From contig CAYWPT010000002.1 in assembly GCA_964460605.1 (NCBI GenBank), positions 1-62,434 on the forward strand: a stretch of DNA of 62,434 nucleotides, in the 5' to 3' direction. Below, in pieces: positions 1-54,852 of the stretch. Positions within the stretch are counted from its first letter, which is position 1. Each line of letters opens with the position of its first letter. The notes beneath the pieces were generated by a model. That model was given only the letters and a program-made list of their open reading frames with translations, was not told the origin of the DNA and did not search any database. Source of the stretch: an uncultured Methanosarcinales archaeon. Its GTDB lineage: Archaea > Nanobdellota > Nanobdellia > Woesearchaeales > GW2011-AR9. Position numbers and translations under genes: made by a program.

Positions 1-126
1 AAAAGAGAATTCTTTTTTTCATTTTGTAAATATAAGTTTAAGTCAGCTAAAACAACTTGTCCTTATTGTGGAAAAAATGATAGGATTATTGAAAGAAATG
101 TGACTGTGGTAGAGTTATTGGGATAA
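1..126 (+). CDS. C-terminal fragment of a zinc-ribbon protein (5' end outside window)
   Basis: Frame 1 is open from the window edge to TAA at 124-126. The peptide KREFFFSFCKYKFKSAKTTCPYCGKND has two Cys knuckles (FCKY, CPYC). Confidence 0.3.
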   Translation, partial: KREFFFSFCKYKFKSAKTTCPYCGKNDRIIERNVTVVELLG

Positions 127-444
127 AAAAAGAAATCAAAAATATAAAAATCTTCTGTTTTATCTATTTGGCCCCCTACTGGTGCCAAATCTAGAAAATA
201 ATTTCTCTATAGCTATACATTAGGTATTGACATAATTAAGCTGGAAAAATGGTGAGAAAATAGGTGAAATAATTTGATTTCAAAGAATATAGCTCTGATT
301 TCATTATTTGATATTTGATTTCAGTAAATATTAAGTTTCTTTTCAACTTATGAAGTAATGAAAATGAAAAACGAATCATTTTCAATAACCTAAAAAAGTT
401 GTTACTTTTTTTTAAGATAATACAAAGATAACGAGGTATAAAAT

Positions 445-813
445 ATGAATTCAAATAAAAAAGTTTTAATTGGCATCTTTGCTTTACTAATAGTTGGAGT
501 TGTTTTTGTTAGTGCAAGTAGCTATCTTAGTATGAATGAATTACATGAAAGAATGATAGCCTCTGAAGGATTTGAAGAGATGCATACTGCAATGATGCAA
601 GGAGACTTTGAAGCAGCAGAGAAATATCATGAAAATCTTGATTTTGAATGTCCAATGCATGAACTAGTAAAAGAAGGAGATGTTTCTCTCGCAGAATTTC
701 AAATAATGCATCAGTGGATGATGACTGGAGATTTTCCAGAAGAAAAACCATCTAGTTTAGGTGAAGCAGCATGGAATTTACATGAAAGCCACCACCTAGA
801 GATCTATGGATAA
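445..813 (+). CDS. small secreted or anchored His/Met-rich protein (possible metal binding)
   Basis: 122-aa ORF with an N-terminal hydrophobic segment (VLIGIFALLIVGVVFVSASS). The remainder is rich in His/Met/Glu (MHTAMMQGDF, HQWMMTGDF, HESHH). A GAGG-like RBS precedes the ATG. Confidence 0.5.
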   Translation: MNSNKKVLIGIFALLIVGVVFVSASSYLSMNELHERMIASEGFEEMHTAMMQGDFEAAEKYHENLDFECPMHELVKEGDVSLAEFQIMHQWMMTGDFPEEKPSSLGEAAWNLHESHHLEIYG

Positions 814-857
814 ATTTATTAACTTCTTTTTTATTCTTTTTTAATAGGGGGGATAAT

Positions 858-1277
858 ATGCAAATAAGGAAAAATAAGGTATTAATTTCATCTGGACTGA
901 TTTTATTATTGGCTATTTTAATCACAACTTTCTCTATGTATCATACAAGACATTTAGGTGGGACATTTTTCCAGTATCCTTTATTCCTTTATGGAACAAC
1001 TATTCTTTCATTAGCAATCGGAGGATATATTGTTTATCTTTTTGAAGATAAGATAAATAAAGTTCAAATTGAAAAATTATTATCTATATTACCTCACGAT
1101 GAAAGAATCATTATGAAATTATTATTAGAGAGGAAAGAAATCGAACAGAAAAAATTAGGAACCCTTTCTGAATTAAATCCTGTAAAAATTTCAAGAGTAG
1201 TTTCAATTCTTGAACAAAGAGGGATAATTGAAAAGAAAAAACATGGATACACAAATCTTATTGTGTTGAAAATATAG
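858..1277 (+). CDS. membrane-anchored winged-helix (MarR/ArsR-like) transcriptional regulator
   Basis: 139-aa ORF with two hydrophobic helices followed by a wHTH-like segment (LSELNPVKISRVVSILEQRGIIEKKKHGYTNLIVL). A GGGGGGA RBS lies upstream. Confidence 0.5.
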   Translation: MQIRKNKVLISSGLILLLAILITTFSMYHTRHLGGTFFQYPLFLYGTTILSLAIGGYIVYLFEDKINKVQIEKLLSILPHDERIIMKLLLERKEIEQKKLGTLSELNPVKISRVVSILEQRGIIEKKKHGYTNLIVLKI

Positions 1278-1678
1278 GGCTTTTTCGCTAAAGATTACTA
1301 TAGTTGAGTTAATTTCTATTCAAGAAACAATAACCCTTACATAATTACTATACTAAATACGAATGAAATGAACTGTATTAATGAAGTTTTCAATTTGATT
1401 TTTTCCAGTAATATTTTAGGTGTTAAATTATCCTGCAATAGAAATAAATGCTCCTGCAGCAAATGGTATAATAAATGCCATAAACATTTCTGAATTTGAA
1501 CCAATGAGCAGACCAATTACTCCTCCAAGAAATAATCTATTTAAGTTTCATAGACTTTCTATGGCCATGCTTTTGAGAACTTATACTAAGCCATAACTTT
1601 AGGGAAGGGCGCTTACAAATTGGTGTAAGTTTGCACCAACAAAAAAAAGCCATTTTTTGCTACAACGCTATACTAAAA

Positions 1679-1695
1679 AGAAAGCGCCAACGCCC
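1679..1695. repeat. attL-like direct repeat (displaced copy of the tRNA-Ser 3' end)
   Basis: agaaagcgccaacgccc is identical to 9018-9034, which covers the last 11 nt of tRNA-Ser plus 6 nt downstream. Confidence 0.6.
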
Positions 1696-1908
1696 AAGAT
1701 CTGTGAATGGTCTAAGTCCGATAAGCCAACAAATTTTTTTACTGGCTTTTAACAGACTATCTCTTTAATTTTTACTTTTAGTAGTACTTTAATGTATATA
1801 ATTCTTTTCATGCTTTGGGCCATAGGTGGTCCCAGAGACTTAAATACTTCTTTTCACAGAATAATCCATAGAAGTGGCCACTTCAAAGCTAGATGGAAGG
1901 TGATCTAA

Positions 1909-2052
1909 TTGAAGTGTATATTATGTGAAAAAGAATGTCAGCGTAAGCTTTGCTCTACCTGCTACAGGTTCCTCAAAAAGAAGTATCTGAACTGGGATGT
2001 AGAAAAAATTGCTGAGCATTATGAAGAGCAAAGGGGTGAGAAAAATGGATGA
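1909..2052 (+). CDS. small zinc-ribbon protein (TTG start, below the ORF-track cutoff)
   Basis: 47 codons: (M)KCILCEKECQRKLCSTCYRFLKKKYLNWDVEKIAEHYEEQRGEKNG, with CxxC...CxxC spacing. Its stop overlaps the next ATG (ATGGATGA), which suggests translational coupling. Confidence 0.3.
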   Translation: MKCILCEKECQRKLCSTCYRFLKKKYLNWDVEKIAEHYEEQRGEKNG

Positions 2053-2260
2053 GTACATTACCCTGCTCTTGAGCTTTAATTTGATGTTTGGAATTTTGTT
2101 CTTTGTAGTTCTTACGTATTTGCCAAGGCAAAGAAAGAAGCTCAAGAAAAAAATTGTCAAGGAAGAGCCAACAAAACCTGAACCAGTAAAGAAGCAACCA
2201 TTCTCTGCACTTGATGCAGTGTTTAAGAAAAACTTTGGCCATAGCCAGGAGGTAATCTAA
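2045..2260 (+). CDS. small single-pass membrane protein with a Lys-rich tail
   Basis: An internal ATG of ORF 2009-2260 is preceded by GGGGTGAG. The product MDEYITLLLSFNLMFGILFFVVLTYL is followed by RQRKKLKKK. It is the first gene of a tightly packed operon. Confidence 0.45.
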   Translation: MDEYITLLLSFNLMFGILFFVVLTYLPRQRKKLKKKIVKEEPTKPEPVKKQPFSALDAVFKKNFGHSQEVI

Positions 2261-2587
2261 ATGAAAAAATTACTAGCCATACTATTATTACTCTGCTTAG
2301 CGACCCCTTTCGCTTTAGCAGAGATAGATTTTAGCCAAGATCTTACAGCAGATGAACAAGCAACTGTAGATAGTATTCTCGCACCTGTTATGAGTATCTA
2401 TAATGCAATTAAGTATGCTATGAGTGTTGTTGCTGTATTGGCATTAATGTTTGCAGGAGTAACTTTTGTTACTGCTGGTGGAGAGACTGCAAAGAAAGAT
2501 CGTGCTAAGAATATGATTGCAGGAGTTGTAATTGGCCTTGTAATTATCTGGGTAGCACCATTAGTGGTACAATTTGTGTTCTCATGA
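2261..2587 (+). CDS. VirB2/TrbC-type (T4SS pilin-like) protein
   Basis: 108 aa. A signal peptide (LLLLCLATPFALA) is followed by two hydrophobic helices separated by a basic loop (FAGVTFVTAGGETAKKDRAKNMIAGVVIGLVII). This is the topology and AGG..AK..I..G motif of T4SS pilins. The gene overlaps the next gene by 4 nt. Confidence 0.55.
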   Translation: MKKLLAILLLLCLATPFALAEIDFSQDLTADEQATVDSILAPVMSIYNAIKYAMSVVAVLALMFAGVTFVTAGGETAKKDRAKNMIAGVVIGLVIIWVAPLVVQFVFS

Positions 2588-4602
2588 AACACGTGTATTT
2601 GTGGGTTGTTGTACTGCTGTTAGCTGTTCCTTTTGTTTTTTCTTTTAATTGTAACAGCGTAAGCGATAGCTCTTATTGCTTAGAAGTACAGCAATCTTCC
2701 TTGAGTTCGCAAGAGAAAGATGTAGTGTATGCTAGTCTCTTGTATCAAGATGTTAATTATCCCAATCATGAATTCGTGCGAGAGTATAACCAAGGTTTGA
2801 ATTTTTGGGGTGCTCCTGATGGTGTTACAACATACAATGCTCAATTTATCAAAAATGCTTGGTTTGCTCTAGCTTGGCTTACCCCTTCAGTGTATAATGG
2901 TTCTTTGCTTGTGCCATCTGAATTTACAGCGCAGGGAGTGTATCATTACACGGTAGATCTTCCAGAGAACTATCACGCTGGGAGTTATCCTACGCAGAGT
3001 CAAGGTGATTGCAAGCGTACCTATCAATTACAGAACCAGCAAACTAACATAGTGTATTACGTCAATGGCGCACAGCAAAGCAATCCATTAAGAGTTACTG
3101 GAGACTCTACTATCTCTTCTGAGTTAAATATCTTAGTTGAGGTGTTAGTGAAACATTACCACTGGCAAGAATACAGCAGAGGGAGGTATCGCTGTGTATA
3201 CCATCATAGCGACACAGAACGTGGTACATCGAGTCTTAGTGATGAGAAAGATGTGGTGCTATATGATGTTGAACCTTCTGTGAATGTAGAAAAAGAGCTT
3301 GTCTATGGCAACACCACGCAACTTCATGTTGATGCACAAGACTATAGTTCTTTTACCTTAGCGTTTGATAATGGTTACTACACAGAGCGTGCGCAATCGT
3401 ATGGCGTAACCTTTTCTTTGCAACCTTATCATGTGGCACAACTCACTGCATATGATACACGGACACAGCGTAGTCAAAATGTCTATGTGGATGACACTAC
3501 GCTCTATGTCTTACGGGGCACCGATTGTTTGATTGATTCCTATAACCATTTCTATAACATAAAAGAAGATTGTAACTTAGATGAGAATGAGAGCGAGATT
3601 GCAAATTTATCTATTGAGAAGAAAGACCTTGACTTCTCTGTGCTGATGCAATTCTTAGTATTTTTGGGGATTATTTATCTGATTTACAAAGCACTCAAAT
3701 CACAATGGAAGAAAGTTGTGCCTATGTTATTCTCAGTCTTACTCTTCATGCCAGGAGTTCTGGCAGCAGACGATACTTCTTGTGGATTAACTAATCTCTC
3801 AGCATGTTTACCTGACATCCTTTACCAATTTATCCTAGCACTTATCAATGCTCCCTTAGCTCCCTTGTTGATATTTGTTGAAAAGTTGCTCACAGGTAAC
3901 GTAGGCATAGAGATATTTTTCTCATTATGGTCAATTGTTCGTATCTTACTTAGCGTCTTTTACTTGTTCTTCTTACTCTACGCAGGATATACTTTAGTAG
4001 TGTCTGGTGCTAATCCTATCAAAAGAGCACAGGCAAAAGAAATGCTCAAGAATGCCCTACTTATGATTATCTTAATTCAAGGATCTTATTATCTCTATGG
4101 TTTGCTTATTAATCTCAGTAGCGTAATGAGTTCTTCGATCATTCAATTAGTGCCACCGGAATTCTTTCTGCTCACTGCAAATAATTTCACCAATATCGGT
4201 TTAGAATTTGCTATGAGTAGTCTGTATTTTGGCACATTACTTGCAACTACAGTAATGCTAGTGATACGATATATCATTGTTGCAACTGGTGTAGTGGTCT
4301 TGCCAATAGGATTGTTTTGTTATTTTGTTCCGCCCTTGCGTGGCTATGGCAAGTTCATCATTAGTGTACTTGGTTTAATGCTATTCATTCCATTTTTGAA
4401 TCTGTTGATTATCTTAGGGTGTTCTATGCTCATTAACGATCCTTTGTTTGCGAGTATGGAAATCATTGTGATGGTAGTTTGTTTTAGTATAGTGAACTTG
4501 ACATTGTGGATTGCTGTGAAGTTTGCATTGAAAGGTGCAGCAACAAGCTCTGTAAAAGATGATCTCAATCAAGCAGTGAAATACTTAGCATTATTGGCTT
4601 AA
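2584..4602 (+). CDS. large polytopic membrane protein, VirB6/TrbL-like candidate
   Basis: 672 aa. It has a signal peptide, an extracytoplasmic domain of about 340 aa with Cys pairs, then at least 7 hydrophobic helices. It is positioned directly after the pilin-like gene, as in T4SS-like clusters. Confidence 0.45.
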   Translation: MKHVYLWVVVLLLAVPFVFSFNCNSVSDSSYCLEVQQSSLSSQEKDVVYASLLYQDVNYPNHEFVREYNQGLNFWGAPDGVTTYNAQFIKNAWFALAWLTPSVYNGSLLVPSEFTAQGVYHYTVDLPENYHAGSYPTQSQGDCKRTYQLQNQQTNIVYYVNGAQQSNPLRVTGDSTISSELNILVEVLVKHYHWQEYSRGRYRCVYHHSDTERGTSSLSDEKDVVLYDVEPSVNVEKELVYGNTTQLHVDAQDYSSFTLAFDNGYYTERAQSYGVTFSLQPYHVAQLTAYDTRTQRSQNVYVDDTTLYVLRGTDCLIDSYNHFYNIKEDCNLDENESEIANLSIEKKDLDFSVLMQFLVFLGIIYLIYKALKSQWKKVVPMLFSVLLFMPGVLAADDTSCGLTNLSACLPDILYQFILALINAPLAPLLIFVEKLLTGNVGIEIFFSLWSIVRILLSVFYLFFLLYAGYTLVVSGANPIKRAQAKEMLKNALLMIILIQGSYYLYGLLINLSSVMSSSIIQLVPPEFFLLTANNFTNIGLEFAMSSLYFGTLLATTVMLVIRYIIVATGVVVLPIGLFCYFVPPLRGYGKFIISVLGLMLFIPFLNLLIILGCSMLINDPLFASMEIIVMVVCFSIVNLTLWIAVKFALKGAATSSVKDDLNQAVKYLALLA

Positions 4603-4605
4603 TAT

Positions 4606-4674
4606 CAGAAAAGCCATAGTTTTTCTGGAACTTTCCAGACAAGCTAAAAAGGTTAGCTAGGCGCAAACTAGCTA
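4606..4674. terminator. cluster of hairpins between convergent genes
   Basis: Three stems: CAGAAAA/TTTTCTG (4606-4627), CTGGAA/TTCCAG (4625-4638) and TAGCTAG/CTAGCTA (4654-4674). They lie between the stops of the 2584-4602 gene and the RT gene. Confidence 0.3.
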
Positions 4675-4678
4675 GTCT

Positions 4679-6415
4679 TTAGAATGGTGGGGAGCTAACA
4701 ACTCCTTTTTTTCTTTTCTCCTTCATGTACCTTTTCATTAGCAAGACGCTTTTCCATGGGAGAATCATTCTTTTCTCATTCTCAGGAAGAACACAAATTG
4801 TAAGATGATCATTAAACAGATTAATAAAATCATGACGTTTTAGCAAAAGGTCTGCATTTCCTGAGATGAATATTTTGAACTTTTCTGAACATAGCTCACG
4901 CTGGTATTTGTTCAGATAACATTTACGCATACAATGAAGTTTTTTGTACCACTGTACGTGAAACTGAACATTCTTTTTTCTGTTTTTCGCCTTCAAATAT
5001 GCACGCACACACTCAATCTCATCAAATGATATTCTAGGATTAAACAATTTAGCTTTGATATCAGAAAGAGTCTCATTTTCTGAAGAGATCTGTTGAAGTA
5101 TCTCTTGTGCTTTTTCACGACCAATAATCTTCCACATAGAAGTTTGGTTGTACTCAATAAGGTTGACAATATGCTTCCAAATGGTCCCTACCCCCATATT
5201 TCTGATTTCTGCAATCTCAGAGGTATTCTTTCCCTCATTCAATAGCTGCAATGTTTTTTGAACACTAAATTGTAACTCGGCGTTTGTTGATTTTTGTAAA
5301 AAATTTCTGTGTTTAGTTATGTCTTCTTTTTTGATCTCTTTCTCAAGAGGGAAGAAATGATTAAATTGTCTAACAAGATGTTTTCTGTATTTGAATGTGT
5401 TTGCGTTTGTTATGTAGGCTAACCAACCTTCAAAATGTTCCACAACCTTTTCTCTGTCAATTTTCCCTACATTATGTTTATAGCGTAATTTGAGTAACTT
5501 GCGTTCAAAGCGGCGAACATTTTTCTTCTTAATTCTTCGATGCTGTTCAAATAGCCGAAACCCAAGAAAACCAACACCCTGATTCAAATTATGAACTTTT
5601 GATTTGTCCGGATGCAATTTTAATTTTAGAGAGTCCAAAAGAAAATGCTCAATTTTCAGCTTATAATCTTCAAGAACCGCCCTATTTGAATGCACTATCA
5701 CAAAATCGTCAACATATCTTATGTAATATTTCGCTCTGAGCGTATGTTTTACAAACTGATCTAACTCATTCAAGTAGACATTTGCAAAAAATTGAGATGT
5801 GAGATTGCCAAGCGGCATACCAACAGAAGCTTCTTTGGTTTTGTGGTTTTTCAAGATAATCTTAATCAATCTCAAAACTCTCTTGTCTGAAATTTTCTTA
5901 GACAATATTGATTGAAGAATGTCATGATTAACAGTATCAAAATAGTGTCTGATGTCTGCTTTAAGGACGTAACATTTTTTTGAATATGATTCTGATGCCT
6001 TGCGTGTGAAGGACTCAAACCGTGCAATAGCGTTCAGTGATCCTTTACCTTTTCTATTCGCAAAAGAGTCAAAGATAAAACGATTTTCAAACAGAGATTC
6101 AATAACATTAAATGTTGCATGATGTACTACACGATCACGAAATGCCGATTTGCTAATTTTGCGAGTTTTTGGATCTCGAAGGATAAACGTCTCTAATGGT
6201 TTTGGTCTATAAGACTGCAGTAATAATTCAGAACGAAGTAATTCTAAATTCTCTTCAAGCTTTGCTTCAAAGTCAATGACATAATGTTTTGTTGTTTTTT
6301 TCTTGCGTGCATTCTTGAATGCGAGTTCAAGGTTTTCTTTTGAACATAACTCATCAAAAAGGTTTCGGAGGTCGTTGTCCCCCCCCCCTTCGTAGTGAAT
6401 TTTTGCATTTTTCAT
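4679..6415 (-). CDS. diversity-generating retroelement reverse transcriptase with a C-terminal extension
   Basis: RT motifs present: ADIRHYFDTVNH, GMPLGNLTSQFFANVYLNELD (DGR-type [LI]GxxxSQ), IRYVDDFVIV (YxDD), LHPDKSKV and GFLGFRL. The start is set at Met46 of the tracked ORF (ATG 6415-6413), because codons 1-45 are the TR. About 190 extra residues follow the thumb, with an HTH-like segment (TSEIAEIRNMGVGTIWKHIVNLIE) and a Cys-containing tail. Confidence 0.85.
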   Translation of the reverse strand: MKNAKIHYEGGGDNDLRNLFDELCSKENLELAFKNARKKKTTKHYVIDFEAKLEENLELLRSELLLQSYRPKPLETFILRDPKTRKISKSAFRDRVVHHATFNVIESLFENRFIFDSFANRKGKGSLNAIARFESFTRKASESYSKKCYVLKADIRHYFDTVNHDILQSILSKKISDKRVLRLIKIILKNHKTKEASVGMPLGNLTSQFFANVYLNELDQFVKHTLRAKYYIRYVDDFVIVHSNRAVLEDYKLKIEHFLLDSLKLKLHPDKSKVHNLNQGVGFLGFRLFEQHRRIKKKNVRRFERKLLKLRYKHNVGKIDREKVVEHFEGWLAYITNANTFKYRKHLVRQFNHFFPLEKEIKKEDITKHRNFLQKSTNAELQFSVQKTLQLLNEGKNTSEIAEIRNMGVGTIWKHIVNLIEYNQTSMWKIIGREKAQEILQQISSENETLSDIKAKLFNPRISFDEIECVRAYLKAKNRKKNVQFHVQWYKKLHCMRKCYLNKYQRELCSEKFKIFISGNADLLLKRHDFINLFNDHLTICVLPENEKRMILPWKSVLLMKRYMKEKRKKGVVSSPPF

Positions 6416-6450
6416 TGTCAAAATAAAGATGTCCCAGCACAAGAGCTTGT

Positions 6451-6538
6451 CTATTCCGATAGAGCGACCATTATTGTTAAGATTGTTATTACCATTAACA
6501 CCATTGTTATTATTGTTAAGCACAACGGCACGGCCGCT
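6451..6538 (-). repeat. DGR template repeat (TR)
   Basis: 88 nt aligning without gaps to 6907-6994. It encodes SGRAVVLNNNNNGVNGNNNLNNNGRSIGI with 12 AAY codons. It lies between the target gene and the RT, on the same strand. Confidence 0.85.
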
Positions 6539-6709
6539 CAAAGTAGCCATTTCACCTTTTAAAGATCACCACCCCTTCAGTGCAGAGCATCAAGTTGGAG
6601 TTGAATTTTATAACAGCAAGCTGCCATGGTGAAACGGCATGTAGGCCAGCTCTTTACATTATACCTAACATGTGCTAGGTGAGCTGGGACAAAGAAAAAA
6701 GAAACAAAG

Positions 6710-7741
6710 TTATTCATATAGTTTTCGTAATCCTTCCTCAAAATCTTGAAGGCCATGCTCTGAAACAAACGGCCGGGAAAACACTAATACTTGTTCTAAT
6801 GATGGATGTGTACTTTCTACTCCTAGATCAGCAGCTGATTTAGCTGGATTAACTTCTGAAGGTACAGGGCCAACAATGCGTGCGCGCGCTTCAAGCGCCT
6901 CCGGCGCTACCCCGATAGAGCGACCAAGATAGTCAAGATTGTACTTACCACCAACACCAAACTCATTATCGCCAAGCACAACGGCACGGCCGCTATTTTT
7001 ATTCCCATAGCCATCTGAGTGTGAACCAAACTGAGTCCATCCAAAGGACTGTGCTCTCTCAAGCATTCCTTTCAGTGGTTCTTTTCCACCAGACCTGATC
7101 TGTAAGCGTGGATTATTCATCTGTTCAGAAATTGCTTTGTAACCTCTTGATTCTGCTTGTGCAGCTTCAGAAGGAGTGATCACAACATATCCTGGTGTGT
7201 TACGTAAAAAACCATCTACATTAGAAGCTTCTGTAAATTCTCCAACATCATTGAAGATATAATTGTCTCCATCTGGGCCTTGCAACCATCCTTTTTGAAC
7301 AAGTGCGGCAACATCTCCATCCCTAACATATGTTAGAAATTCGTTCACTTCATCTTGATCTAGTGGCATTGCACCATTTTGCAATCTGCCTTCTGTAATT
7401 GTATCGTGAACCCTATTTGGATCGTTTACAAAGATTCCACCACGTTGAAAATCTACAACATAAAGTTTCCCTGCTTCACCAAGGATTCCGTCTTCATCAA
7501 GCATAGTATCAACTTCAGCGTTGGTATCATTCCACTTTGACCATGTTGGATCTGTCTTTTCTGCTGTAGCCCTTGCAAGAGCAAACATATAAGTTGGAGC
7601 TCTCTGTAAACCAGCTTCCTGCGCAGCACTAACAGAATCAGCAAAGCCCGTTCTACCTTTCCTATAAAGTGGGGTCCCTACTACCTCAATAACGTTTCCT
7701 TCATCATCTACGCCTCTTTCAAAAACATAATTATCTGACAT
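6710..7741 (-). CDS. DGR target (variable) protein
   Basis: 343 aa from the ATG at 7741, which is preceded by AAGGTGAT; the tracked start at 7750 is a GTG inside that RBS. It contains VR at about aa 250-279 (SGRAVVLGDNEFGVGGKYNLDYLGRSIGV). No signal peptide or TM segment is visible. Confidence 0.8.
   Translation of the reverse strand: MSDNYVFERGVDDEGNVIEVVGTPLYRKGRTGFADSVSAAQEAGLQRAPTYMFALARATAEKTDPTWSKWNDTNAEVDTMLDEDGILGEAGKLYVVDFQRGGIFVNDPNRVHDTITEGRLQNGAMPLDQDEVNEFLTYVRDGDVAALVQKGWLQGPDGDNYIFNDVGEFTEASNVDGFLRNTPGYVVITPSEAAQAESRGYKAISEQMNNPRLQIRSGGKEPLKGMLERAQSFGWTQFGSHSDGYGNKNSGRAVVLGDNEFGVGGKYNLDYLGRSIGVAPEALEARARIVGPVPSEVNPAKSAADLGVESTHPSLEQVLVFSRPFVSEHGLQDFEEGLRKLYE
6894..6908 (-). promoter_or_regulatory. 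GC-rich hairpin immediately 3' of VR (candidate retrohoming-enhancing structure)
   Basis: On the minus strand, AGCGCC-GGA-GGCGCT forms a perfect 6-bp GC stem with a 3-nt loop, starting at the last 2 nt of VR. The TR copy lacks this sequence. Confidence 0.45.
6907..6994 (-). repeat. DGR variable repeat (VR)
   Basis: 88 nt with 17 mismatches to TR. Fifteen are at TR adenines (T on the + strand) and two are not (at about 6943 and 6961). The flanking A-poor blocks are identical (21 nt and 15 nt). Confidence 0.85.
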
Positions 7742-7830
7742 TAAGATCACCTTAAATTTTATTTATATACCTAGGTGAATCCCCATTTATAAATCTTTTG
7801 TTTAAATACTGACTATCAAGTGATAACAAA

Positions 7831-8052
7831 ATGGCCTACGACATACCCCCACCACTACAGCATAAAGAGAAGATCATCTTCGGATTGACCTTCTCGCAGC
7901 TAGCGATAGCTACACCAGCACTGCTTCTGAGCGTCATCAACATTCTTCCCATTCATATGAACATAGGTAGCAGCCATTTTACTCCCTTGAATCCAACCAA
8001 AGAACTGATTCATTTGAAATTCTGTAAGAAAACCAGCATAATAGGATGCTAA
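7831..8052 (+). pseudogene. PrgI/VirB3-like N-terminal fragment (probably truncated)
   Basis: MAYDIPPPLQHKEKIIFGLTFSQLAIATPALLL resembles the PrgI-family N-terminal motif (VP..i..e.KI.fGLT..Q). From 7900 onward the ORF overlaps the integrase 3' end on the opposite strand and loses any family-like sequence. Confidence 0.3.
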
Positions 8053-8853
8053 AGAATGTCTAAATAGGTGTGGGTGTATTTTCTTATTGAGTTTTGCTCT
8101 TTTTCCAGCACTAATAAGTACTTTTCTTATAGCTGAATAACTAATCGGCTTATCCTTATTTTTGCCAGATGTATGAACCCAAAGGGTAGCCTCTCTATCT
8201 TTACCAAACGGATGATTGTTTAACCAATTAGTGAGGTATGGTACACTCCAGATTAATCTAACTGTCCTTGAACCGGTTTTACCATGTACAGAAAGCAAAA
8301 CTCCATATTCATCAAAATGGACATTTTTAATGAGCAAGTTTCCTAATTCACTTACTCTAGCTCCAGATTCTGCAAGAGTTGCTATAATCGCCTTATCTCT
8401 ACTATGGTCTGTAGATTTAATCAAGGACTTAATTTCTTCTTGTGTGATCATATCTCCAATTTGTTTAGTTTTTGATTCTGATCTACTAATCCTAATACAG
8501 ATCCAATCTGCAATAGATGGAACATTATTCTCTTCTGCAATCCATTGAAAGAACTTACGTATAATCACTTTGTACGTTTGTTTAGTCCAAGAAGTAAATT
8601 CGCTTTGTTGAAGGTTGCTGATATATTTCTTTAGCTTACTCTCTTTTAGCTTGGTTATATCATCTTCTTTAAGTTCTTCAATAACAATTATTAGGTATTG
8701 GAGATATCTTATAATTCTTGACTTTGAAAGACTTTTTAGAACTAAGTTGTCCTTAAATGTCATTAGAATCTCTTTATTTTTCTCTGATATCTCAGACTTT
8801 TTTATTCTTGCAAGTGTTTGTTCCAACTTTTTATCGTAGTTGTGAATTCCCAT
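7900..8853 (-). CDS. tyrosine recombinase / integrase (XerC/D-like)
   Basis: Catalytic motifs present: ESGARVSEL, HGKTGSRTV, HPHLFRHSLAS and GWIQGSKMAATYVHM. The start is set at Met39 (ATG 8853), which is preceded by GGAGGATATACT. The gene is adjacent to the tRNA-Ser 3' end. Confidence 0.85.
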   Translation of the reverse strand: MGIHNYDKKLEQTLARIKKSEISEKNKEILMTFKDNLVLKSLSKSRIIRYLQYLIIVIEELKEDDITKLKESKLKKYISNLQQSEFTSWTKQTYKVIIRKFFQWIAEENNVPSIADWICIRISRSESKTKQIGDMITQEEIKSLIKSTDHSRDKAIIATLAESGARVSELGNLLIKNVHFDEYGVLLSVHGKTGSRTVRLIWSVPYLTNWLNNHPFGKDREATLWVHTSGKNKDKPISYSAIRKVLISAGKRAKLNKKIHPHLFRHSLASYYAGFLTEFQMNQFFGWIQGSKMAATYVHMNGKNVDDAQKQCWCSYR

Positions 8854-9017
8854 AGTATATCCTCCAAGAAATAGACTATTTAAACCTCTGGGCCCTCTTA
8901 TGACCCATGGATTTTGGACTTGGACTAATTCACAACTCCTTGTTGCGGCGCTTATTCTTTGGTGCAAGTCCGCACCTCAAAAACAGGGCCAAATTCAACA
9001 CCGGCGTTTAACTAAGT

Positions 9018-9034
9018 AGAAAGCGCCAACGCCC
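9018..9034. repeat. attR-like direct repeat overlapping the tRNA-Ser 3' end
   Basis: agaaagcgccaacgccc is identical to 1679-1695. Confidence 0.6.
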
Positions 9035-9188
9035 GGATTTGAACCGGGATATCCAAAGGAAACTGGTTAACTCGACTTGCGTCGTGGACTTGCCATGAGC
9101 AAGTTTCAAGACCAGCGCAATATTCTCCGGCGCAGCTGGAGAGTTCAGTAGCTCTCTGCTACTCGCCACCAGATTATGCGACGTTGGC
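9024..9188 (-). tRNA. tRNA-Ser(UGA) with two intervening sequences
   Basis: Acceptor stem GCCAACG/CGTTGGC. T arm CCCGG-TTCAAAT-CCGGG. Anticodon arm CTGGT-CTTGAA[about 36 nt]A-ACCAG. Variable arm TCC-TTT-GGA. D stem GCA/TGC, with about 43 extra nt in the D loop. The 165-nt genomic length compares with about 85 nt expected for the mature tRNA. No CCA is encoded. Confidence 0.75.
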
Positions 9189-9233
9189 AAACTTAAATAA
9201 AAAATAAAGAACTTATTTATAAAGATTTAGCCA

Positions 9234-11123
9234 TTATTTCAACCTAATGGTCTCAAGATTCTTTGGGGCAATAGTCTCAATTCTAAACTGTTTATGTATT
9301 GATGAAGCTAAATCTAAACATCGTGAAGCTTCACCGTGCTGTACAATTACACGTCTAGGCTGTGGATTACATCTTTTTACATAGTTTATTAATTGCCTAC
9401 GATCAGAATGGTTAGTAATCTCAACTTTATGTACTTGTAAGTTAATGTTCATCGCTTGCATTTTACCATTTTCTCTAAATTGAATTTGTTTCTCCCCTTC
9501 TCTAATACGATGACCAAGACTACCTTTCGGCTGATAACATGAGAAGATCAAAGAATGTTTTTTACCTTCAGCAAAACCTTTCAAGTATTCAACTGATGGT
9601 CCACCAGTAAGCATACCTGAGGTTGCAAGAACTAAACAAGGTCCTTCAGAGGAAATAACCTCTTTACGTTCTTTATTAGATCCAACCCTGGTAAAAATTT
9701 CACTTAAGAAAGGATTGTTTTCTTTCTTAAAAATTTGATTTCTAATATTTCTATTAAGATATTCTGGATAAGCTGTATGAATCGCTGTAATATCCCATAA
9801 CATTCCATCAATGTATACAGGTACTTTTGGAATTTTACCTTCGCGCATTAAACGCTCACAAGTGATCATCATCTCTTGCGCACGACCTGAACCTAGTACT
9901 GGCATTAAAACCTTACCACCACGCTCAAAAGTATCTTTGATAACTTGCGCTGTGTATTCATCTGCTTCTTGCTCAGCCATTACATTACTTCTCCCACCAT
10001 AAGTACTCTCAACAATAAGAGTCTCTACTCGTGGAAATTGTGTGTTAGCTGGCTCGAGTACATTTGTTTTACCATACTTCATATCTGCAGTGTAAACTAA
10101 GTTATGTAATCCATTTCCAATATTAAGGTGAGTAATACAACTTCCTAAGATGTGTCCACTATTATAGAATGTAAGACGAACATCAGGTGTAATATCTGTT
10201 ACGGTATCCCAATCAATACAAACTGCGTGTAAAACAAAGTTCTTTACATCTTCACTAGTATAAATTGGATCTTTACCTTCGTTTCTTTGAATTTTAGCCA
10301 TATCTAATTGTAACAGAGCACTAACATCTCTTGTAGGTGCTGTACAATATACTGGTCCTTTGTATCCATACTTGAATAAGTAAGGAACGAGCCCACTATG
10401 GTCTAAATGTGAATGTGATAAAATCACTGCATCAATTTCTGAGATATTAAACTCAGGAGCATCCAAGAATGGATAAGATTCTGAACCATCTTGACTCGGA
10501 TCAATACCACAATCCATTATGATACGTGATTCAGGAGTTTGTAATAATAAACATGATCTTCCTACTTGGCGCGCAGCTCCTAAAAAGCTTAAGCGTACCC
10601 ATTGGTGTTTTTTAGATCTTGTCCAACCATCGTATACTCTGTGTCCAGCTTTTGCTAAGAACTTTTTACGATAATCAGCATTTTCATAGAGTACTGATCG
10701 AATACTCTCAATTAATTTTGATTTAATTGGCGGGTTTCTTTTAACTAATGGTACCCACATAGTTTGTTTCTTTAATTCTCTTAATAACTCGCCTCTTTTA
10801 CCAATGATTAATCCTGGTTTATCAGCATGAATAATAACTTGTGACCTTGGTGGATCAAAAATAAGATCTTCAACACCAGCTTCTTTTGGGATTAATTCTC
10901 TGATTGTAGCTTCTGCTTTTTCTTGTACCATACAAAGGCTAGGGTCTGGACGAAGCTCAATTCTTTTCTTGAAGTTTTTTACTGCATCTTTGATAGTTCC
11001 TTTATTATCAAGGAAGAAATCTTTATCTTTAGTATAAAGGACGATGTTTGCTGCTTCAAATGTAGCTTCTGCTACCTTCCCTTCCGGGAGAATTTTTACA
11101 ATTTCTTTTAGAATGTCTGCCAT
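9234..11123 (-). CDS. aCPSF1-type beta-CASP ribonuclease (KH domains + metallo-beta-lactamase; archaeal termination factor family)
   Basis: N-terminal KH-like region, an HSHLDHSG metallo-beta-lactamase motif and a beta-CASP C-terminal region (ITNHSDRRQL). The start is chosen at ATG 11123 (MADILKEI), which has an upstream GGAG; the tracked start is a TTG. Confidence 0.85.
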   Translation of the reverse strand: MADILKEIVKILPEGKVAEATFEAANIVLYTKDKDFFLDNKGTIKDAVKNFKKRIELRPDPSLCMVQEKAEATIRELIPKEAGVEDLIFDPPRSQVIIHADKPGLIIGKRGELLRELKKQTMWVPLVKRNPPIKSKLIESIRSVLYENADYRKKFLAKAGHRVYDGWTRSKKHQWVRLSFLGAARQVGRSCLLLQTPESRIIMDCGIDPSQDGSESYPFLDAPEFNISEIDAVILSHSHLDHSGLVPYLFKYGYKGPVYCTAPTRDVSALLQLDMAKIQRNEGKDPIYTSEDVKNFVLHAVCIDWDTVTDITPDVRLTFYNSGHILGSCITHLNIGNGLHNLVYTADMKYGKTNVLEPANTQFPRVETLIVESTYGGRSNVMAEQEADEYTAQVIKDTFERGGKVLMPVLGSGRAQEMMITCERLMREGKIPKVPVYIDGMLWDITAIHTAYPEYLNRNIRNQIFKKENNPFLSEIFTRVGSNKERKEVISSEGPCLVLATSGMLTGGPSVEYLKGFAEGKKHSLIFSCYQPKGSLGHRIREGEKQIQFRENGKMQAMNINLQVHKVEITNHSDRRQLINYVKRCNPQPRRVIVQHGEASRCLDLASSIHKQFRIETIAPKNLETIRLK

Positions 11124-11298
11124 TTTATCGGTTTTCTCCATAAAGTGCAGGCTCAAAAATTTTCAATTTTTTTATGTCTGCCATTTTATTTAATGTAATT
11201 AAATTTTCTTAGAACTCGATGAACTATATCTTCGTAATTTGTTTTACTACCCCACATAATTAATTTTAAAAAAATAAATATAAACTTCTAAGAATGTT

Positions 11299-11931
11299 CT
11301 ATAAGCTATAAACCAGCTCCTTTTTTAAAACTTTCTCTACTTTTTCAGAAGTAACAACTGCAATTTCAATCCCGTTTCCTGATGCACTATCTCTTTGTAG
11401 TGCAGCATTTACAGCTTTAAGAGCAAGTTCTTTTCCTTCTTCAATACTTAAGTTTGCATTCCAGTGGCTTTCTAATACACCATAAGCAAATACTGAACCT
11501 GATCCTGAACTTACATAATCTGGAATTCTAGTAACGCTTCCGTCTGGGAATAAATCGTAAAGATGTGAACCTGTATCATCTTTTCCACCCATTATAAAGT
11601 GAGCTACTGCTGGGAACATTGACATTCTTCTCAATGTGCTATAGAGTAATCCACCCAATAGGTTAGCTGATTCTTTGATGGTAGGCATCTTTTTTGTTCG
11701 TACTTCTTTTAATTTTAATTCTGCACGAATAAGTTTAATTAATAATTGTGCTTCAGAGACAGAACCTGCGATAGTTACTGCTACATTATCATTGATAATA
11801 TGTAATTTTTCAGCCCTTTTATCCACGATCATATGACCTGCTGTTGCTCTTGTATCTGTTGCAAGTACAACGCCACCTTTACATACAATACCTAAAGTTG
11901 TAGTCCCTGTTTTTAACATTTTAGTTTCCAT
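11299..11931 (-). CDS. psmB: proteasome beta subunit
   Basis: LKTG/TTTLGIVCKGGVVLATDTRAT shows the propeptide cleavage site and the active-site Thr. Typical 20S beta length. Confidence 0.9.
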   Translation of the reverse strand: METKMLKTGTTTLGIVCKGGVVLATDTRATAGHMIVDKRAEKLHIINDNVAVTIAGSVSEAQLLIKLIRAELKLKEVRTKKMPTIKESANLLGGLLYSTLRRMSMFPAVAHFIMGGKDDTGSHLYDLFPDGSVTRIPDYVSSGSGSVFAYGVLESHWNANLSIEEGKELALKAVNAALQRDSASGNGIEIAVVTSEKVEKVLKKELVYSL

Positions 11932-12133
11932 ATATAACACCTGTATAATTTTGAGATAGAATAGTAGTTATCCTCACCAATTGAAAAGGAGAGGAATTAT
12001 ACTTTTAAAGCTTTCGGAACTTCAAAAGTAACTCTAGGCAATGATTAAACAAAATAATCATTGCTCACGTCGTCTTTTTCCTGGGGTGAAGAAAGTTTAT
12101 ATTCTAATTGGTATATCATATAATTACCCATAT

Positions 12134-12415
12134 CGGGAGGCATAGCTTAGCTCCCTGTGAGCATTAAGCGCCCTCCAAGTGAGAGGCCATCGAAAGATAA
12201 CAGCTCCCCTACCGGTGTGGGCCTTTTCTACAGCAATATTTATAAGGAGATTAGGATTTTTCTCATTGTTCAACTTGGGCATAGCTCAGCCCTGCATTTA
12301 TTTGCACACCGAAAGCTTATGGTTTTTTGTGTCGTGGCATCTTATCCTCCTTTGTGGGAGGCCAAACGGATACTATAGCTCACCTGAGTTGGACGCCTTT
12401 GAAAAATATAGTTAA
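12134..12415 (+). ncRNA. structured ncRNA candidate (class unresolved; weak SRP helix-8-like motif)
   Basis: A GC-rich block of about 280 nt in AT-rich intergenic DNA. Several stems are visible: GGGAG..CTCCC (12136-12155), GGGC..GCCC (12277-12292) and CCTCC..GGAGG (12346-12361). It also has two GAAA-capped hairpins, including AGGCCATC-GAAA-GATAACAGC. The overlapping tracked ORFs look spurious. Confidence 0.35.
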
Positions 12416-12476
12416 CTAGTGTGCTTGAACAAAGTGAAACACACACTTTTTAATCAAATTTTTGGAGAAAAAATTT

Positions 12477-12549
12477 GCCTCAGTAGCTCAGTGGCTAGAG
12501 CACTTGACTTGTAATCAAGAGGTCGGGAGTTCAAATCTCCCCTGGGGCT
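12477..12549 (+). tRNA. tRNA-Thr(UGU)
   Basis: Full cloverleaf: GCCTCAG-TA-GCTC-AGTGGCTA-GAGC-A-CTTGA-CTTGTAA-TCAAG-AGGTC-GGGAG-TTCAAAT-CTCCC-CTGGGGC-T. Length 73 nt, no intron. Confidence 0.9.
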
Positions 12550-12595
12550 CTTTTCTTTCATAAACTGATTAAACAAACCATTAAATTATTTTTCT

Positions 12596-13006
12596 ATGAG
12601 ATATTTTTTACCTGGGACAGATTATAAAACACCTGATACTTTAGATATCTTTTATGGTAGCAAGGGTATGCTAGATGAGGGAATGACAACTAATGCAGAT
12701 GAATTTGCAGCTGGAAGAGCACCCGTTGGTGTTTTAGAGCGAGCAACTATGTCTTGGACTAGGTTTCCCGATGGAGAAAGAACTACAATAGATGATTGGT
12801 ATAATCCTAAAGAGTTAGGTGGTGATTTATTATCACTTGTTATGTCTACAGATAGTTTAGAAAGATCAGGCTTAGAAAAAAGAAGAACACCTTGCTATTT
12901 AACAGAATTAGGGAATTACCACACAATCCATGCAGCAACTGTAGAACAAGCACAAATGTTTTTAGATAAACATTACAAAGATTCTGGATTTAGAATTGAT
13001 TTTTAA
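12596..13006 (+). CDS. hypothetical protein
   Basis: 136-aa ORF with no motif I recognise. Confidence 0.45.
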   Translation: MRYFLPGTDYKTPDTLDIFYGSKGMLDEGMTTNADEFAAGRAPVGVLERATMSWTRFPDGERTTIDDWYNPKELGGDLLSLVMSTDSLERSGLEKRRTPCYLTELGNYHTIHAATVEQAQMFLDKHYKDSGFRIDF

Positions 13007-13548
13007 TTTTTCCATTCTTTTCGCAACATTCCAAATTTAATCAGATTTTGCCATTTCCCATCTCTAAAATGAGCATTACGTGCAACACCTTCTTCAACAA
13101 AGCCTAAGTTACGAATAATTTTTCCAGAACCAATATTTTCTTCAACATAACAGACACTTATTCTATGCATCTTTTTCTCAACAAATCCAAAATTAACAAC
13201 AGCTTTTACAACCTTGCTCATAATACCTTTACGCCAATATTTACGACCAAGCCAATAACCTAAATCACTATAATGCTCTTTACCTTTCTTGTATACATTA
13301 TCAAGCCCACAAATACCAACAACTTTTCCATCAACTACAATAGCAAAACGATAAGCAGAACCTTTCTTCCATTGTTTAAGAGAATCATCAACAAACCACT
13401 TAGCATCTTTCAAAGTATATGGGCTAGGTAATCTTTCTAAGTACATTGCTACCTTTTTATCATTAGCATGTTTAGCTAAACTTTTTTCATCGCCTTTTTT
13501 CAAAGGCCGTATATAGAAATCGCCAAAATTAATCTTCATAAATCTCAT
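13003..13548 (-). CDS. GNAT family N-acetyltransferase (RimJ/RimL-like)
   Basis: IRPLKKGD, then a GYWLGRKYWRKGIMSK acetyl-CoA-binding-type motif. 181 aa. Confidence 0.75.
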   Translation of the reverse strand: MRFMKINFGDFYIRPLKKGDEKSLAKHANDKKVAMYLERLPSPYTLKDAKWFVDDSLKQWKKGSAYRFAIVVDGKVVGICGLDNVYKKGKEHYSDLGYWLGRKYWRKGIMSKVVKAVVNFGFVEKKMHRISVCYVEENIGSGKIIRNLGFVEEGVARNAHFRDGKWQNLIKFGMLRKEWKN

Positions 13549-14222
13549 TTCTCCCTATGGTGGCTAGGCCAAGCAGAACTTGGATAGAATGATTTTGTTT
13601 CTTCGTAAGGTAGATACCTTTTTAATTTGAACCACTGCTTGATAAAATTTTGGAAAACATAAACTTCTCGATACAATTCCCTTTTTCTTTGATCGATGGT
13701 ACTTTTGTAAATACGCTTGTTAAAAATATCTTGAATTGGTTTGAACCATCTTTTTCCACCTAATTCGCTTTTATATTTTTCTTCGATATAAGCGACCATT
13801 TCCATACCAATTTCTCCTTTATTTGCTTTGATTTTATTACCATCTCTAATAATCTCTGTATTTCCTAAAGCGATAATCTGTACGTTAAAATCAAAATGAT
13901 AATGGAGCATACTCCCATCTGGTGCAGGTTTTTGTAATCTCCAATAGTAAGTGATGTTTTTTACTCCTCCTGGAAGATGTTGTTCGAAATAATGTGTTTC
14001 ATACGCTTCATTGTATGTGTGCGCATCATCATCAGGACTCCCTGTTGTTGCATACCAGCCATATTCACGTAAAAAATAGAAACAAGCTTCATAAAATGCA
14101 CTTAAATCAAAGATATCTTTGTACTTTAATTTAATTGGAGCATCTGGTACTTTAATGAGATTTTTTGTTTTTCTAGCTGGCACATGATTTACGAAGAATT
14201 TTTTGTATATAAAGTTTCGCAA
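13545..14222 (-). CDS. hypothetical protein
   Basis: 225-aa ORF whose stop overlaps the GNAT start by 4 nt (operon). No recognised motif. Confidence 0.5.
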   Translation of the reverse strand: MRNFIYKKFFVNHVPARKTKNLIKVPDAPIKLKYKDIFDLSAFYEACFYFLREYGWYATTGSPDDDAHTYNEAYETHYFEQHLPGGVKNITYYWRLQKPAPDGSMLHYHFDFNVQIIALGNTEIIRDGNKIKANKGEIGMEMVAYIEEKYKSELGGKRWFKPIQDIFNKRIYKSTIDQRKRELYREVYVFQNFIKQWFKLKRYLPYEETKSFYPSSAWPSHHREK

Positions 14223-54747: not shown

Positions 54748-54852
54748 GCCCCTGTGGTGTAGATGGTGGAGCTTAGTTGCTTGCCAACACATTCCGGACT
54801 ATCATTCTGCCCTTTCGAGGCAGCGACTCGGGTTCAAATCCCGGCGGGGGCA
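54748..54852 (+). tRNA. tRNA-Glu(UUC) with an intron of about 30 nt in the D loop
   Basis: Acceptor stem GCCCCTG/CGGGGGC. Anticodon arm CTGCC-CTTTCGA-GGCAG. T arm TCGGG-TTCAAAT-CCCGG. Removing atggtggagcttagttgcttgccaacacat after GTGTAG restores the canonical archaeal tRNA-Glu D arm (GGTGTAGTCCGGACTATCAT). 105 nt genomic versus 75 nt mature. Confidence 0.75.

Follow-up and report, generated by a model that had tools for sequence, protein, structure and literature searches.

The minus strand of a 62,434-nt stretch of DNA from an uncultured archaeon (contig CAYWPT010000002.1; the whole stretch is called the window below) carries, between positions 7741 and 4679, a gene for a variable protein, two 88-nt repeats, a structured RNA motif and a gene for a reverse transcriptase (RT). 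Together they very probably constitute a complete diversity-generating retroelement (DGR) of the Nanoarchaeota/Woesearchaeota (DPANN) type. An annotation made earlier from the letters alone (the sequence-only reading) had proposed a complete archaeal DGR, with the signature of adenine-directed mutagenic retrohoming, in the minus-strand order target gene (7741-6710), template repeat (TR, 6538-6451) and RT (6415-4679). The coordinates were confirmed, and the diagnosis is borne out by an RT closest to that of the Bordetella phage DGR, by adenine-specific mismatches between TR and the variable repeat (VR), by the initiation of mutagenic homing signals of VR (IMH) and TR (IMH*), and by a hairpin. 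Labels of the form L001 denote related DPANN loci or assemblies that were compared with the window. The features of the locus are as follows.

6710-7741, minus strand: target gene, encoding a 343-aa variable protein of the AvpA family (C-type-lectin fold), assigned from the open reading frame (ORF), profile and predicted fold
6907-6994, minus strand: VR; adenine-templated variable core at about 6927-6973; the 3' 19 nt (6907-6925), GGTCGCTCTATCGGGGTAG, form an invariant IMH-like end
6894-6908, minus strand: hairpin AGCGCC-gga-GGCGCT, directly after the IMH and inside the target ORF, with a GRA trinucleotide loop
6683-6690, minus strand: 5' strand of a predicted long-range duplex, GTCCCAGC, just 5' of the RT-16 motif; the duplex would enclose RT-16 and TR
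6538-6679, minus strand: RT-16 RNA motif of Rfam (RF03019; score 70.1 bits, gathering score 50); a structured leader
6451-6538, minus strand: TR, with 29 adenines and 12 AAY codons; its 3' end (6451-6469), GGTCGCTCTATCGGAATAG, is an IMH* with GGAAT
6431-6438, minus strand: 3' strand of the predicted duplex, GCTGGGAC, 12 nt beyond the end of TR and 15 nt short of the RT start codon
6379-6388, minus strand: G10 homopolymer, a candidate slipped-strand switch, in RT codons 10-13 (E-G-G-G-D)
4679-6415, minus strand: DGR reverse transcriptase, 578 aa, with the RT domain at about 5552-6169, HTH_40 at about 5003-5266 and a four-cysteine tail at about 4793-4951

TR and VR align on the minus strand without a gap, at an offset of 456 nt, and differ at 17 positions. 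Fifteen of these are TR adenines; the other two are C to G at repeat position 32 and T to G at position 50. Given 29 adenines in an 88-nt TR, 15 or more of 17 mismatches would fall on adenine by chance with P = 2.2e-7 (1.7e-6 with the terminal AA to GG pair excluded), and the pair falls within the rule of Paul et al. 2015 (PMC4372165), which asks for at least 10 adenine mismatches and at most two others per 100 bp. TR translates as SGRAVVL-NNNNN-GV-N-G-NNN-L-NNN-GRSIGI, and a codon comparison finds 10 of its 12 AAY codons recoded in VR. The A-poor flanks, 21 nt on the 5' side and 15 nt on the 3' side, are identical in the two repeats; each occurs exactly twice in the window, where none would be expected, and hence there is a single VR in the window. 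The alignment, the mismatch and codon counts and the flanks are all as the sequence-only reading had given them by hand. Within the target ORF, VR encodes approximately residues 250-278, in the 3' part of the gene, with about 65 residues following it.

Just 3' of the 15-nt block, TR has AA where VR has GG (CGGAAT and CGGGGT, respectively). The sequence-only reading had recorded this difference, and it can now be given a meaning. In nanoarchaeal DGRs the IMH is TGGGGT and the IMH* is TGGAAT, and hairpins with GRA triloops lie in the target gene (Paul et al. 2015, PMC4372165). The same ends, GGAAT in TR and GGGGT in VR, are common to the window and to L012, L018, L032, L045 and L029, and GGGGT is also present in all four orthologous VRs. 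Judged from this comparison, the AA/GG difference is the IMH*/IMH motif and not a product of random mutagenesis. The hairpin that follows the IMH begins 2 nt before the end of the repeat. In L012 a hairpin occupies the same place with another stem, GCGGC-gga-GCCGC, so that the stem covaries; L029 has GCGCC-gga-GGCGC, and the element is also found in L001 and L005. In random sequence, a hairpin of this kind would be expected in 0.6% of 72-nt stretches.

The RT ORF is intact. Both motifs named by the sequence-only reading, LGNLTSQ (motif 4, of the IGxxxSQ or [LIV]GxxxSQ type) and YVDD, are present in it, and Pfam recognizes RVT_1 (2.7e-22) and, at the C-terminus, HTH_40 (1.8e-16). The best solved relative is the RT of the Bordetella phage DGR (bRT; 8ub7_A, E = 5e-39, 137.7 bits), with group II intron RTs coming second (at most 97 bits, E of 1e-26 or weaker). 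In the alignment the equivalent of bRT R74 is conserved and that of I181 is a leucine. Among the PHROG families of phage RTs the match is to phrog_1423 (2e-112). Known DGR phages supply its closest phage relatives, among them Vibrio VP585, Bordetella phages and ANMV-1, a virus of archaea; the C-terminal 230 residues are covered by none of them. Scores against the NCBIfam models of other RT classes stay below the respective cut-offs: 166 bits for the group II RT/maturase TIGR04416 (cut-off 300), 59 for retron St85 (235), 73 for Drt3a (200) and 53 for Drt2 (390). A protein search brings up RVT_1 plus HTH_40 proteins by the thousand; they come from Woesearchaeota and Nanoarchaeota, have 545-610 aa and are 50-62% identical to this RT. 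On the strength of these homologues, the combination of RT and HTH_40 is the standard DPANN architecture and nothing unusual. Following HTH_40, at RT residues of about 489-541, four cysteines (C495, C499, C509 and C541) are invariant in an alignment of 22 DPANN RTs, and this tail may be a putative zinc-binding module without family assignment.

From the RT an open frame runs further upstream to an ATG at 6550, so that TR is in frame with RT within a 623-aa ORF (4679-6550, minus strand). Gene callers annotate the RT of L008 as such a long frame including TR, and 10 of 119 homologous RT gene calls (about 9%) start with the TR-encoded Asn-rich peptide. This number is within chance, and the shared frame was rejected as a meaningful feature.

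The target protein has no match in Pfam, NCBIfam or PHROG. A word-indexed search of 5.8 billion proteins yields only five close relatives (six proteins in all at E of 1e-3 or better), and an exhaustive profile search 112. When a 75-sequence family profile is compared with the PDB, AvpA (5ioo_A) is matched over its full length with both halves aligned (E = 5.2e-47); the single target sequence reaches AvpA with E = 0.3 only. A first AlphaFold2 (AF2) model, built from a six-sequence alignment, had a predicted local distance difference test score (pLDDT) of 59 and a Foldseek E of 0.95, with AvpA ranked first; it was replaced by a model from 74 sequences with a pLDDT of 95 and a predicted template modelling score (pTM) of 0.84. 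The sole significant Foldseek match of this second model in the PDB is 5ioo_A (E = 4e-10, template modelling score 0.80, root-mean-square deviation 3.0 Å). This model shows a C-type-lectin fold of the AvpA type, in which VR is internal and a helical extension forms the C-terminus. By profile and predicted fold, then, the target is a distant member of a characterised family: AvpA is a crystallised variable protein of a Nanoarchaeota DGR (Handa et al. 2016, PMC5006420), whose internal VR of about 27 residues has 12 variable positions, whose strand beta5 is encoded by the IMH and contains RFxGV, and whose C-terminal extension has a hairpin in its DNA (PMC5006420). The suggestion of the sequence-only reading that neither this target nor this RT architecture might have been characterised has to be withdrawn, as a crystal structure of the AvpA family exists (5IOO) and RT plus HTH_40 is standard.

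The closest orthologues of the target, in L001 (4898-9032), L004 and L005, are 64-70% identical to it and have a diversified VR with conserved IMH and hairpin. No RT or TR was found within the flanks available for these three, so the target family can persist without a local DGR. Taken together, the three orthologues share 70.5% identity with the window gene outside VR; within VR, identity is 83% at sites that are not adenine-templated and 39.5% at those that are. Adenine-specific variation is therefore observed between TR and VR and again between orthologues, alongside the anatomy of the locus and the family memberships of its parts. Variation between samples is another matter. Between L008 (a single contig, seen in three samples), L007 and L009 the identity is 100% over the whole 4.8-kb cassette and its VR. 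The expectation of the sequence-only reading that VR would vary opposite TR adenines consequently holds for orthologues, which vary specifically at these positions, and does not hold for the consensus VR, which shows no variation across at least four assemblies.

RT-16 takes up the space from the target stop codon to TR; its match covers the full model (1-158), lies on the RT strand upstream of the RT gene, and ends on the first base of TR (6538). An Rfam scan of the region reports nothing but RT-16, with neither intron nor retron RNA. Of 30 related DPANN RT loci scanned, drawn from genomes and metagenomes, 20 have RT-16. In the loci for which a VR could be identified, the start of TR lies between -3 and +1 nt relative to the 3' end of RT-16; the exception is L013, in which the repeat is split by an indel and the first segment starts at +1. 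The order VR, RT-16, TR and RT with HTH_40 recurs in L012, L018, L032, L045, L029, L034, L035, L037 and L013. In the main text of Weinberg et al. 2017 (PMC5737381), RT-10 alone is assigned to a DGR, the other RT motifs being left to speculation. By analogy with the Bordetella phage DGR, the likely job of the orphan family RT-16 is that of a 5' leader of the TR RNA in DGRs that lack the accessory protein Avd. We found no mention of an RT-16 or G/C homopolymer association in DGR papers, a survey that covered neither Paul et al. 2017 nor the Weinberg 2017 supplements; an association of RT-16 or HTH_40 with DGRs may already be described in these. As a side observation, L031 has a copy of RT-16 (4201-4378, minus strand) just downstream of its RT match and on the opposite strand, which suggests a second DGR RNA or a cassette in convergent orientation.

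RT-16 and TR would be enclosed by a long-range duplex, since GTCCCAGC and GCTGGGAC are reverse complements of each other. This pairing is part of the minimum-energy fold of 6380-6710 (z = -3.4), and related loci have an equivalent pair at the same positions with other sequences: GTCCCAGCTA with TAGCTGGGAT, GTCTTAGGGAGT with ACTCTCTAAGAC, TGCCCTAGAGGGCT with AGCTCTCTAGGGCA, GTCCTAG with CTAGGAC, and TTGTCTCT with AGAGACAA. Because duplex energies in wide windows were noisy, a contiguous-helix test was used instead, and the Fisher combined P for the long-range duplex over 17 unique loci is 1.2e-5. In the window itself this test chose another pairing in place of GTCCCAGC/GCTGGGAC, namely that of a pyrimidine tract with the G tract (6689-6707 with 6375-6393, minus strand; 19 bp including G.U pairs, P = 0.002 against shuffles). 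This pyrimidine-rich tract, TTGTTTCTTTTTTCTTTGT, lies directly 3' of the target stop codon and resembles an archaeal oligo-T terminator of the target gene. No TATA box with a consistent placement across loci was found, and a sigma-70 promoter scan was set aside because the host is an archaeon.

What might such an element do? Our model takes the Bordetella phage DGR as its guide, and it is from that system that we infer the RNA boundaries, the priming, the roles of RT-16, the duplex and the RT extension, and activity at the present day. An RNA would be made with RT-16 as its structured leader and TR directly after it, and would probably be closed by pairing of GTCCCAGC, upstream of RT-16, with GCTGGGAC, a short way downstream of TR. 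The RT, from the gene that follows directly, would copy TR into cDNA, faithfully at C, G and U and with random misincorporation opposite A. The homologous 88-nt VR, in the 3' part of the gene for the AvpA-like target, would then be replaced by this cDNA, and the direction and end-point of the transfer would be set by the GGA-loop hairpin together with the neighbouring IMH (GGGGT in VR, GGAAT in TR). Up to 12 Asn (AAY) codons could be recoded in this way, and they would form the C-type-lectin fold's ligand-binding face. The C-terminal HTH_40 and four-cysteine extension of the RT is an obvious candidate for the role of a nucleic-acid-binding cofactor.

In the window, which has 34% GC, no G/C homopolymer other than the G10 tract near the 5' end of the RT gene reaches 7 nt. 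The length of this tract decides where a full-length RT can start: with G10 the frame is open from the ATG at 6415, with G11 from an ATG at 6408, and with G9 there is no full-length RT. Among 30 unique related loci, six have G/C runs of 9-11 nt, which all lie within the DGR core; 0.045 runs of that length would be expected in 160 kb, and no A/T run of 9 nt or more is present in the compared stretches of these AT-rich sequences. Three kinds of site harbour the tracts: the 5' end of RT, a loop of RT near residue 180, and the region upstream of RT-16. In related loci they were located as follows.

L012: 4532-4542
L043: 419-428
L021: 3976-3985
L027: 465-474
L039: 922-930
L015: 3610-3618
L017: 3637-3645
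L033: 2636-2645

Three pairs of assemblies differ in tract length.

L021 and L039: C10 and C9, 2,040 nt compared, otherwise identical
L017 and L033: G9 and G10, 7,029 nt compared, otherwise identical
L008 and L007: G10 and G11, 11.4 kb compared, with a single further mismatch next to the scaffold gap of L007

In the window and in L021/L039 the tract is preceded by two ATGs in different frames. The RTs of L012 and L043 are frameshifted at their G tracts, and in L012 (G11) a tract of G10 would restore the frame. GGG or PPP is found at the same two sites in 7 of 120 homologous proteins. Such recurrent, length-variable tracts suggest, as far as assembled sequence can, phase variation of the DGR.

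How firmly can the locus be called a DGR, and one that still works? A number of observations weigh against it. Two of the TR/VR mismatches lie off adenine. The hairpin downstream of VR, folded as DNA, is not more stable than shuffled sequences (z = +1.05), and the argument for it, drawn from comparison of loci, is one of position and conservation and not of energy. There is no Avd next to TR and RT, in that no ORF lies between the target stop codon and RT and no Avd-like Pfam match was found among the neighbouring ORFs, and the best-studied DGR requires Avd; this accessory protein is common in DGRs, not universal. The consensus VR is the same in at least four independent assemblies, with no diversification visible between samples, and the closest target orthologues, in the flanks that could be compared, stand without RT or TR. 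One alternative would be that the repeats are an ordinary duplication that diverged under selection on Asn codons, next to an unrelated RT of a group II intron, a retron or a defence system. The 166 bits of the RT against the group II RT/maturase model might be cited for it. This is a weak match, however, far below the cut-off of 300, and Rfam reports RT-16 and no intron or retron RNA in the region, whereas a genuine group II intron among the compared loci (L046) is only 30% identical and carries intron RNA domains. The mismatches are biased towards adenine in a directional manner (P = 2e-7), and the same architecture recurs in more than 10 independent loci, which makes an unrelated duplication very improbable. 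A DGR by descent that is now quiescent or rarely active, with a VR written once and then fixed and a cassette on its way to becoming a relic, is the likelier of these two alternatives, although we think it rather unlikely as well. It would explain why at least four assemblies, made from different samples, share one and the same VR and 4.8-kb cassette. The two differences off adenine suggest that ordinary point mutations have arisen after the last homing, close orthologues of the target are known with no RT or TR nearby, and related RTs are frameshifted at G tracts (L012, L043). On the other hand, the RT ORF is intact with all catalytic motifs kept, TR retains its 12 AAY codons and perfect A-poor flanks, and the IMH, IMH*, hairpin and RT-16 are all intact. 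Moreover, assemblies give consensus sequences, in which minority VR variants are hidden.

For the G10 tract the balance is different. That it is no switch at all, and is either a homopolymer artefact of sequencing or assembly or a structural RNA element pairing with the pyrimidine tract 6689-6707, has in our estimate a substantial chance, somewhat short of even. Long G runs are error-prone on Illumina, and two assemblies break at or beside the tract (a scaffold gap in L007, a contig end in L009), which makes sequencing error a live alternative. The 19-bp duplex of the G-tract region with 6689-6707 exceeds shuffles, and full-length RT would still be made in two of the three tract phases through the alternative ATGs. 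Against this, the tract is internal and in frame in independent assemblies, G/C runs of 9 nt or more are found in the DGR cores of seven of 31 unique related loci as against 0.045 expected, with no A/T runs to match, and in some loci the tract on the RNA strand is poly-C, for which the same pairing is impossible. Our own proposal is that DPANN DGRs without Avd combine a defined RNA unit (closing duplex, RT-16 and TR) with an ON/OFF control that is stochastic and is exerted by hypermutable G/C homopolymers, located at the RT 5' end, in a surface loop of the RT or in the upstream RNA region. We offer it tentatively, as something that could be so and more probably is not. If it is true, a hypermutation machine would itself be phase-variable. 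A contingency locus in control of a DGR would be a first, and in archaea this would also be a rare case of homopolymer phase variation. No paper joining DGRs with homopolymer switching was found in the literature.

As an element, the locus is ordinary for DPANN: it is one more among thousands of known DPANN DGRs, and the fold of its target is already solved. What is added here is the coincidence of the RT-16 end with the first TR base, the covarying duplex around RT-16 and TR, and the recurrent G/C tract. The value of the window is that it offers a clean and complete example in which RT-16, the long-range duplex and the G/C tract can be read together. The essential long-range duplex of the Bordetella type appears to have a counterpart here in another topology, and the recurrence and length variation of the G/C tracts suggest that minimal cells gate their mutator stochastically.

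Judging from its FttA/aCPSF1 (74-86% identical to Woesearchaeota and Nanoarchaeota proteins), a proteasome subunit and other neighbouring genes, the host is a DPANN archaeon and the window part of a Woesearchaeota/Nanoarchaeota genome. The following gene lies next to the DGR.

7900-8967, minus strand: tyrosine recombinase, directly upstream of the target; maximal ORF, which gene callers start at about 8853

The recombinase matches Pfam Phage_integrase; its best NCBIfam model, archaeal XerA, gives 115 bits, below the cut-off of 220. It is 42% identical to a recombinase found 2 kb from the orthologous target in L001, where a Pol-beta nucleotidyltransferase/HEPN pair lies between the two. The gene order PGK, proteasome subunit, FttA is kept in L047 and L048 (FttA 86% and 83% identical), and synteny stops right after FttA; at that site these two have no recombinase, target, RT or adjacent membrane genes. 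Flanking att-like direct repeats of 16 nt or more were not found in 1-14000, and no viral or plasmid hallmark genes were found around the block. Over 2-8 kb the GC content shows only a mild rise, and this does not decide whether the block is an island. The sequence-only reading had spoken of an integrated element. The adjoining recombinase and the absence of the block from the syntenic site of L047 and L048 agree with this, whereas the lack of att repeats and of viral or plasmid hallmarks does not, and the block is better described as a lineage-specific island, possibly mobile, with integration only suggested. IMG/VR, searched with the single RT sequence, gave no match; searched with the RT family alignment, it gave two DPANN-type RTs on predicted viral contigs of about 33 kb, one (L049) 54% identical including the C-terminal extension and the other (L050) 51% identical and with RT-16 upstream.

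Two genes on the plus strand are convergent with RT and missing from the syntenic site in two relatives. One (2261-2587) encodes a 108-aa pilin of a type IV secretion system (PF18895, 42 bits), with a weak TrbC/VirB2 match as well. The other (2584-4602) encodes a protein of 672 aa that has a signal peptide, a C-terminal half of polytopic membrane type and no family match; an exact-sequence look-up of this protein gave no match either. Far from the DGR, a 105-nt tRNA at 54748-54852 (plus strand) is recognized by Rfam (45.9 bits) and not reported by ARAGORN; it is probably an intron-containing archaeal tRNA.

We know other systems with which the locus can be compared. DGRs have been described in groundwater DPANN and candidate phyla radiation organisms (Paul et al. 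2017, as cited in PMC5758913). Among the closest are the DUSEL4 Nanoarchaeota DGRs (PMC4372165), which share with the window a DPANN host, an IMH of xGGGGT against an IMH* of xGGAAT, a GRA-triloop hairpin in the target ORF, a VR that is internal and not C-terminal, and about 12 variable codons, mostly AAY. The signals differ in their first base (CGGGGT/CGGAAT here, TGGGGT/TGGAAT there), and the window has no small Avd-like ORF between target and RT. The resemblance of the target to AvpA extends over the full length, including the C-terminal helical extension, within the same C-type-lectin subclass; VR has about 27-29 residues with 12 variable positions, and the IMH encodes the beta5 motif in both, RFxGV in AvpA and RSIGV here. 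Yet the two are only about 16% identical in the structural alignment, the target has 343 aa with extra insertions against 256 aa for AvpA, and its close subfamily is rare. As to RT-16 (RF03019, PMC5737381), the window sequence scores above the family gathering score and lies upstream of RT on the RT strand, like the family; the difference is that its position is now exact, with the 3' end of RT-16 at the 5' boundary of TR.

The DGR of phage BPP-1, with its complex of bRT, Avd and RNA (PMC6182149; bioRxiv 10.1101/2023.10.23.563531), has in common with the window adenine mutagenesis, the succession of TR and RT and the IMH/IMH* logic. In the Bordetella DGR the avd:Sp "cPRT Stop" duplex is essential, and it is predicted in 207 Avd-containing DGRs (same sources); the GTCCCAGC/GCTGGGAC pair resembles this duplex. 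In contrast to BPP-1, the window has no Avd and its RT has a 230-aa HTH_40 and four-cysteine extension, the distance from TR to the RT start is about 36 nt instead of a 140-nt spacer, the structured RNA (RT-16) is 5' of TR and inside the duplex and not 3' of TR, and the loop of the VR hairpin is 3 nt.

Simple-sequence contingency loci are the remaining comparison, and poly-G/C phase variation of this kind is known in Campylobacter, Neisseria and Bordetella. Like them, the DPANN loci have a 9-11-nt G/C run, which lies either at an ORF's 5' end or upstream of a transcript, show 1-nt length differences between otherwise identical sequences, and have an ORF whose integrity depends on the frame. 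They differ in that the candidate is known here from assemblies and that two of its three phases would stay ON through alternative ATGs. The host, moreover, is an archaeon, and the gene that would be controlled is not a surface protein but the mutator RT itself.

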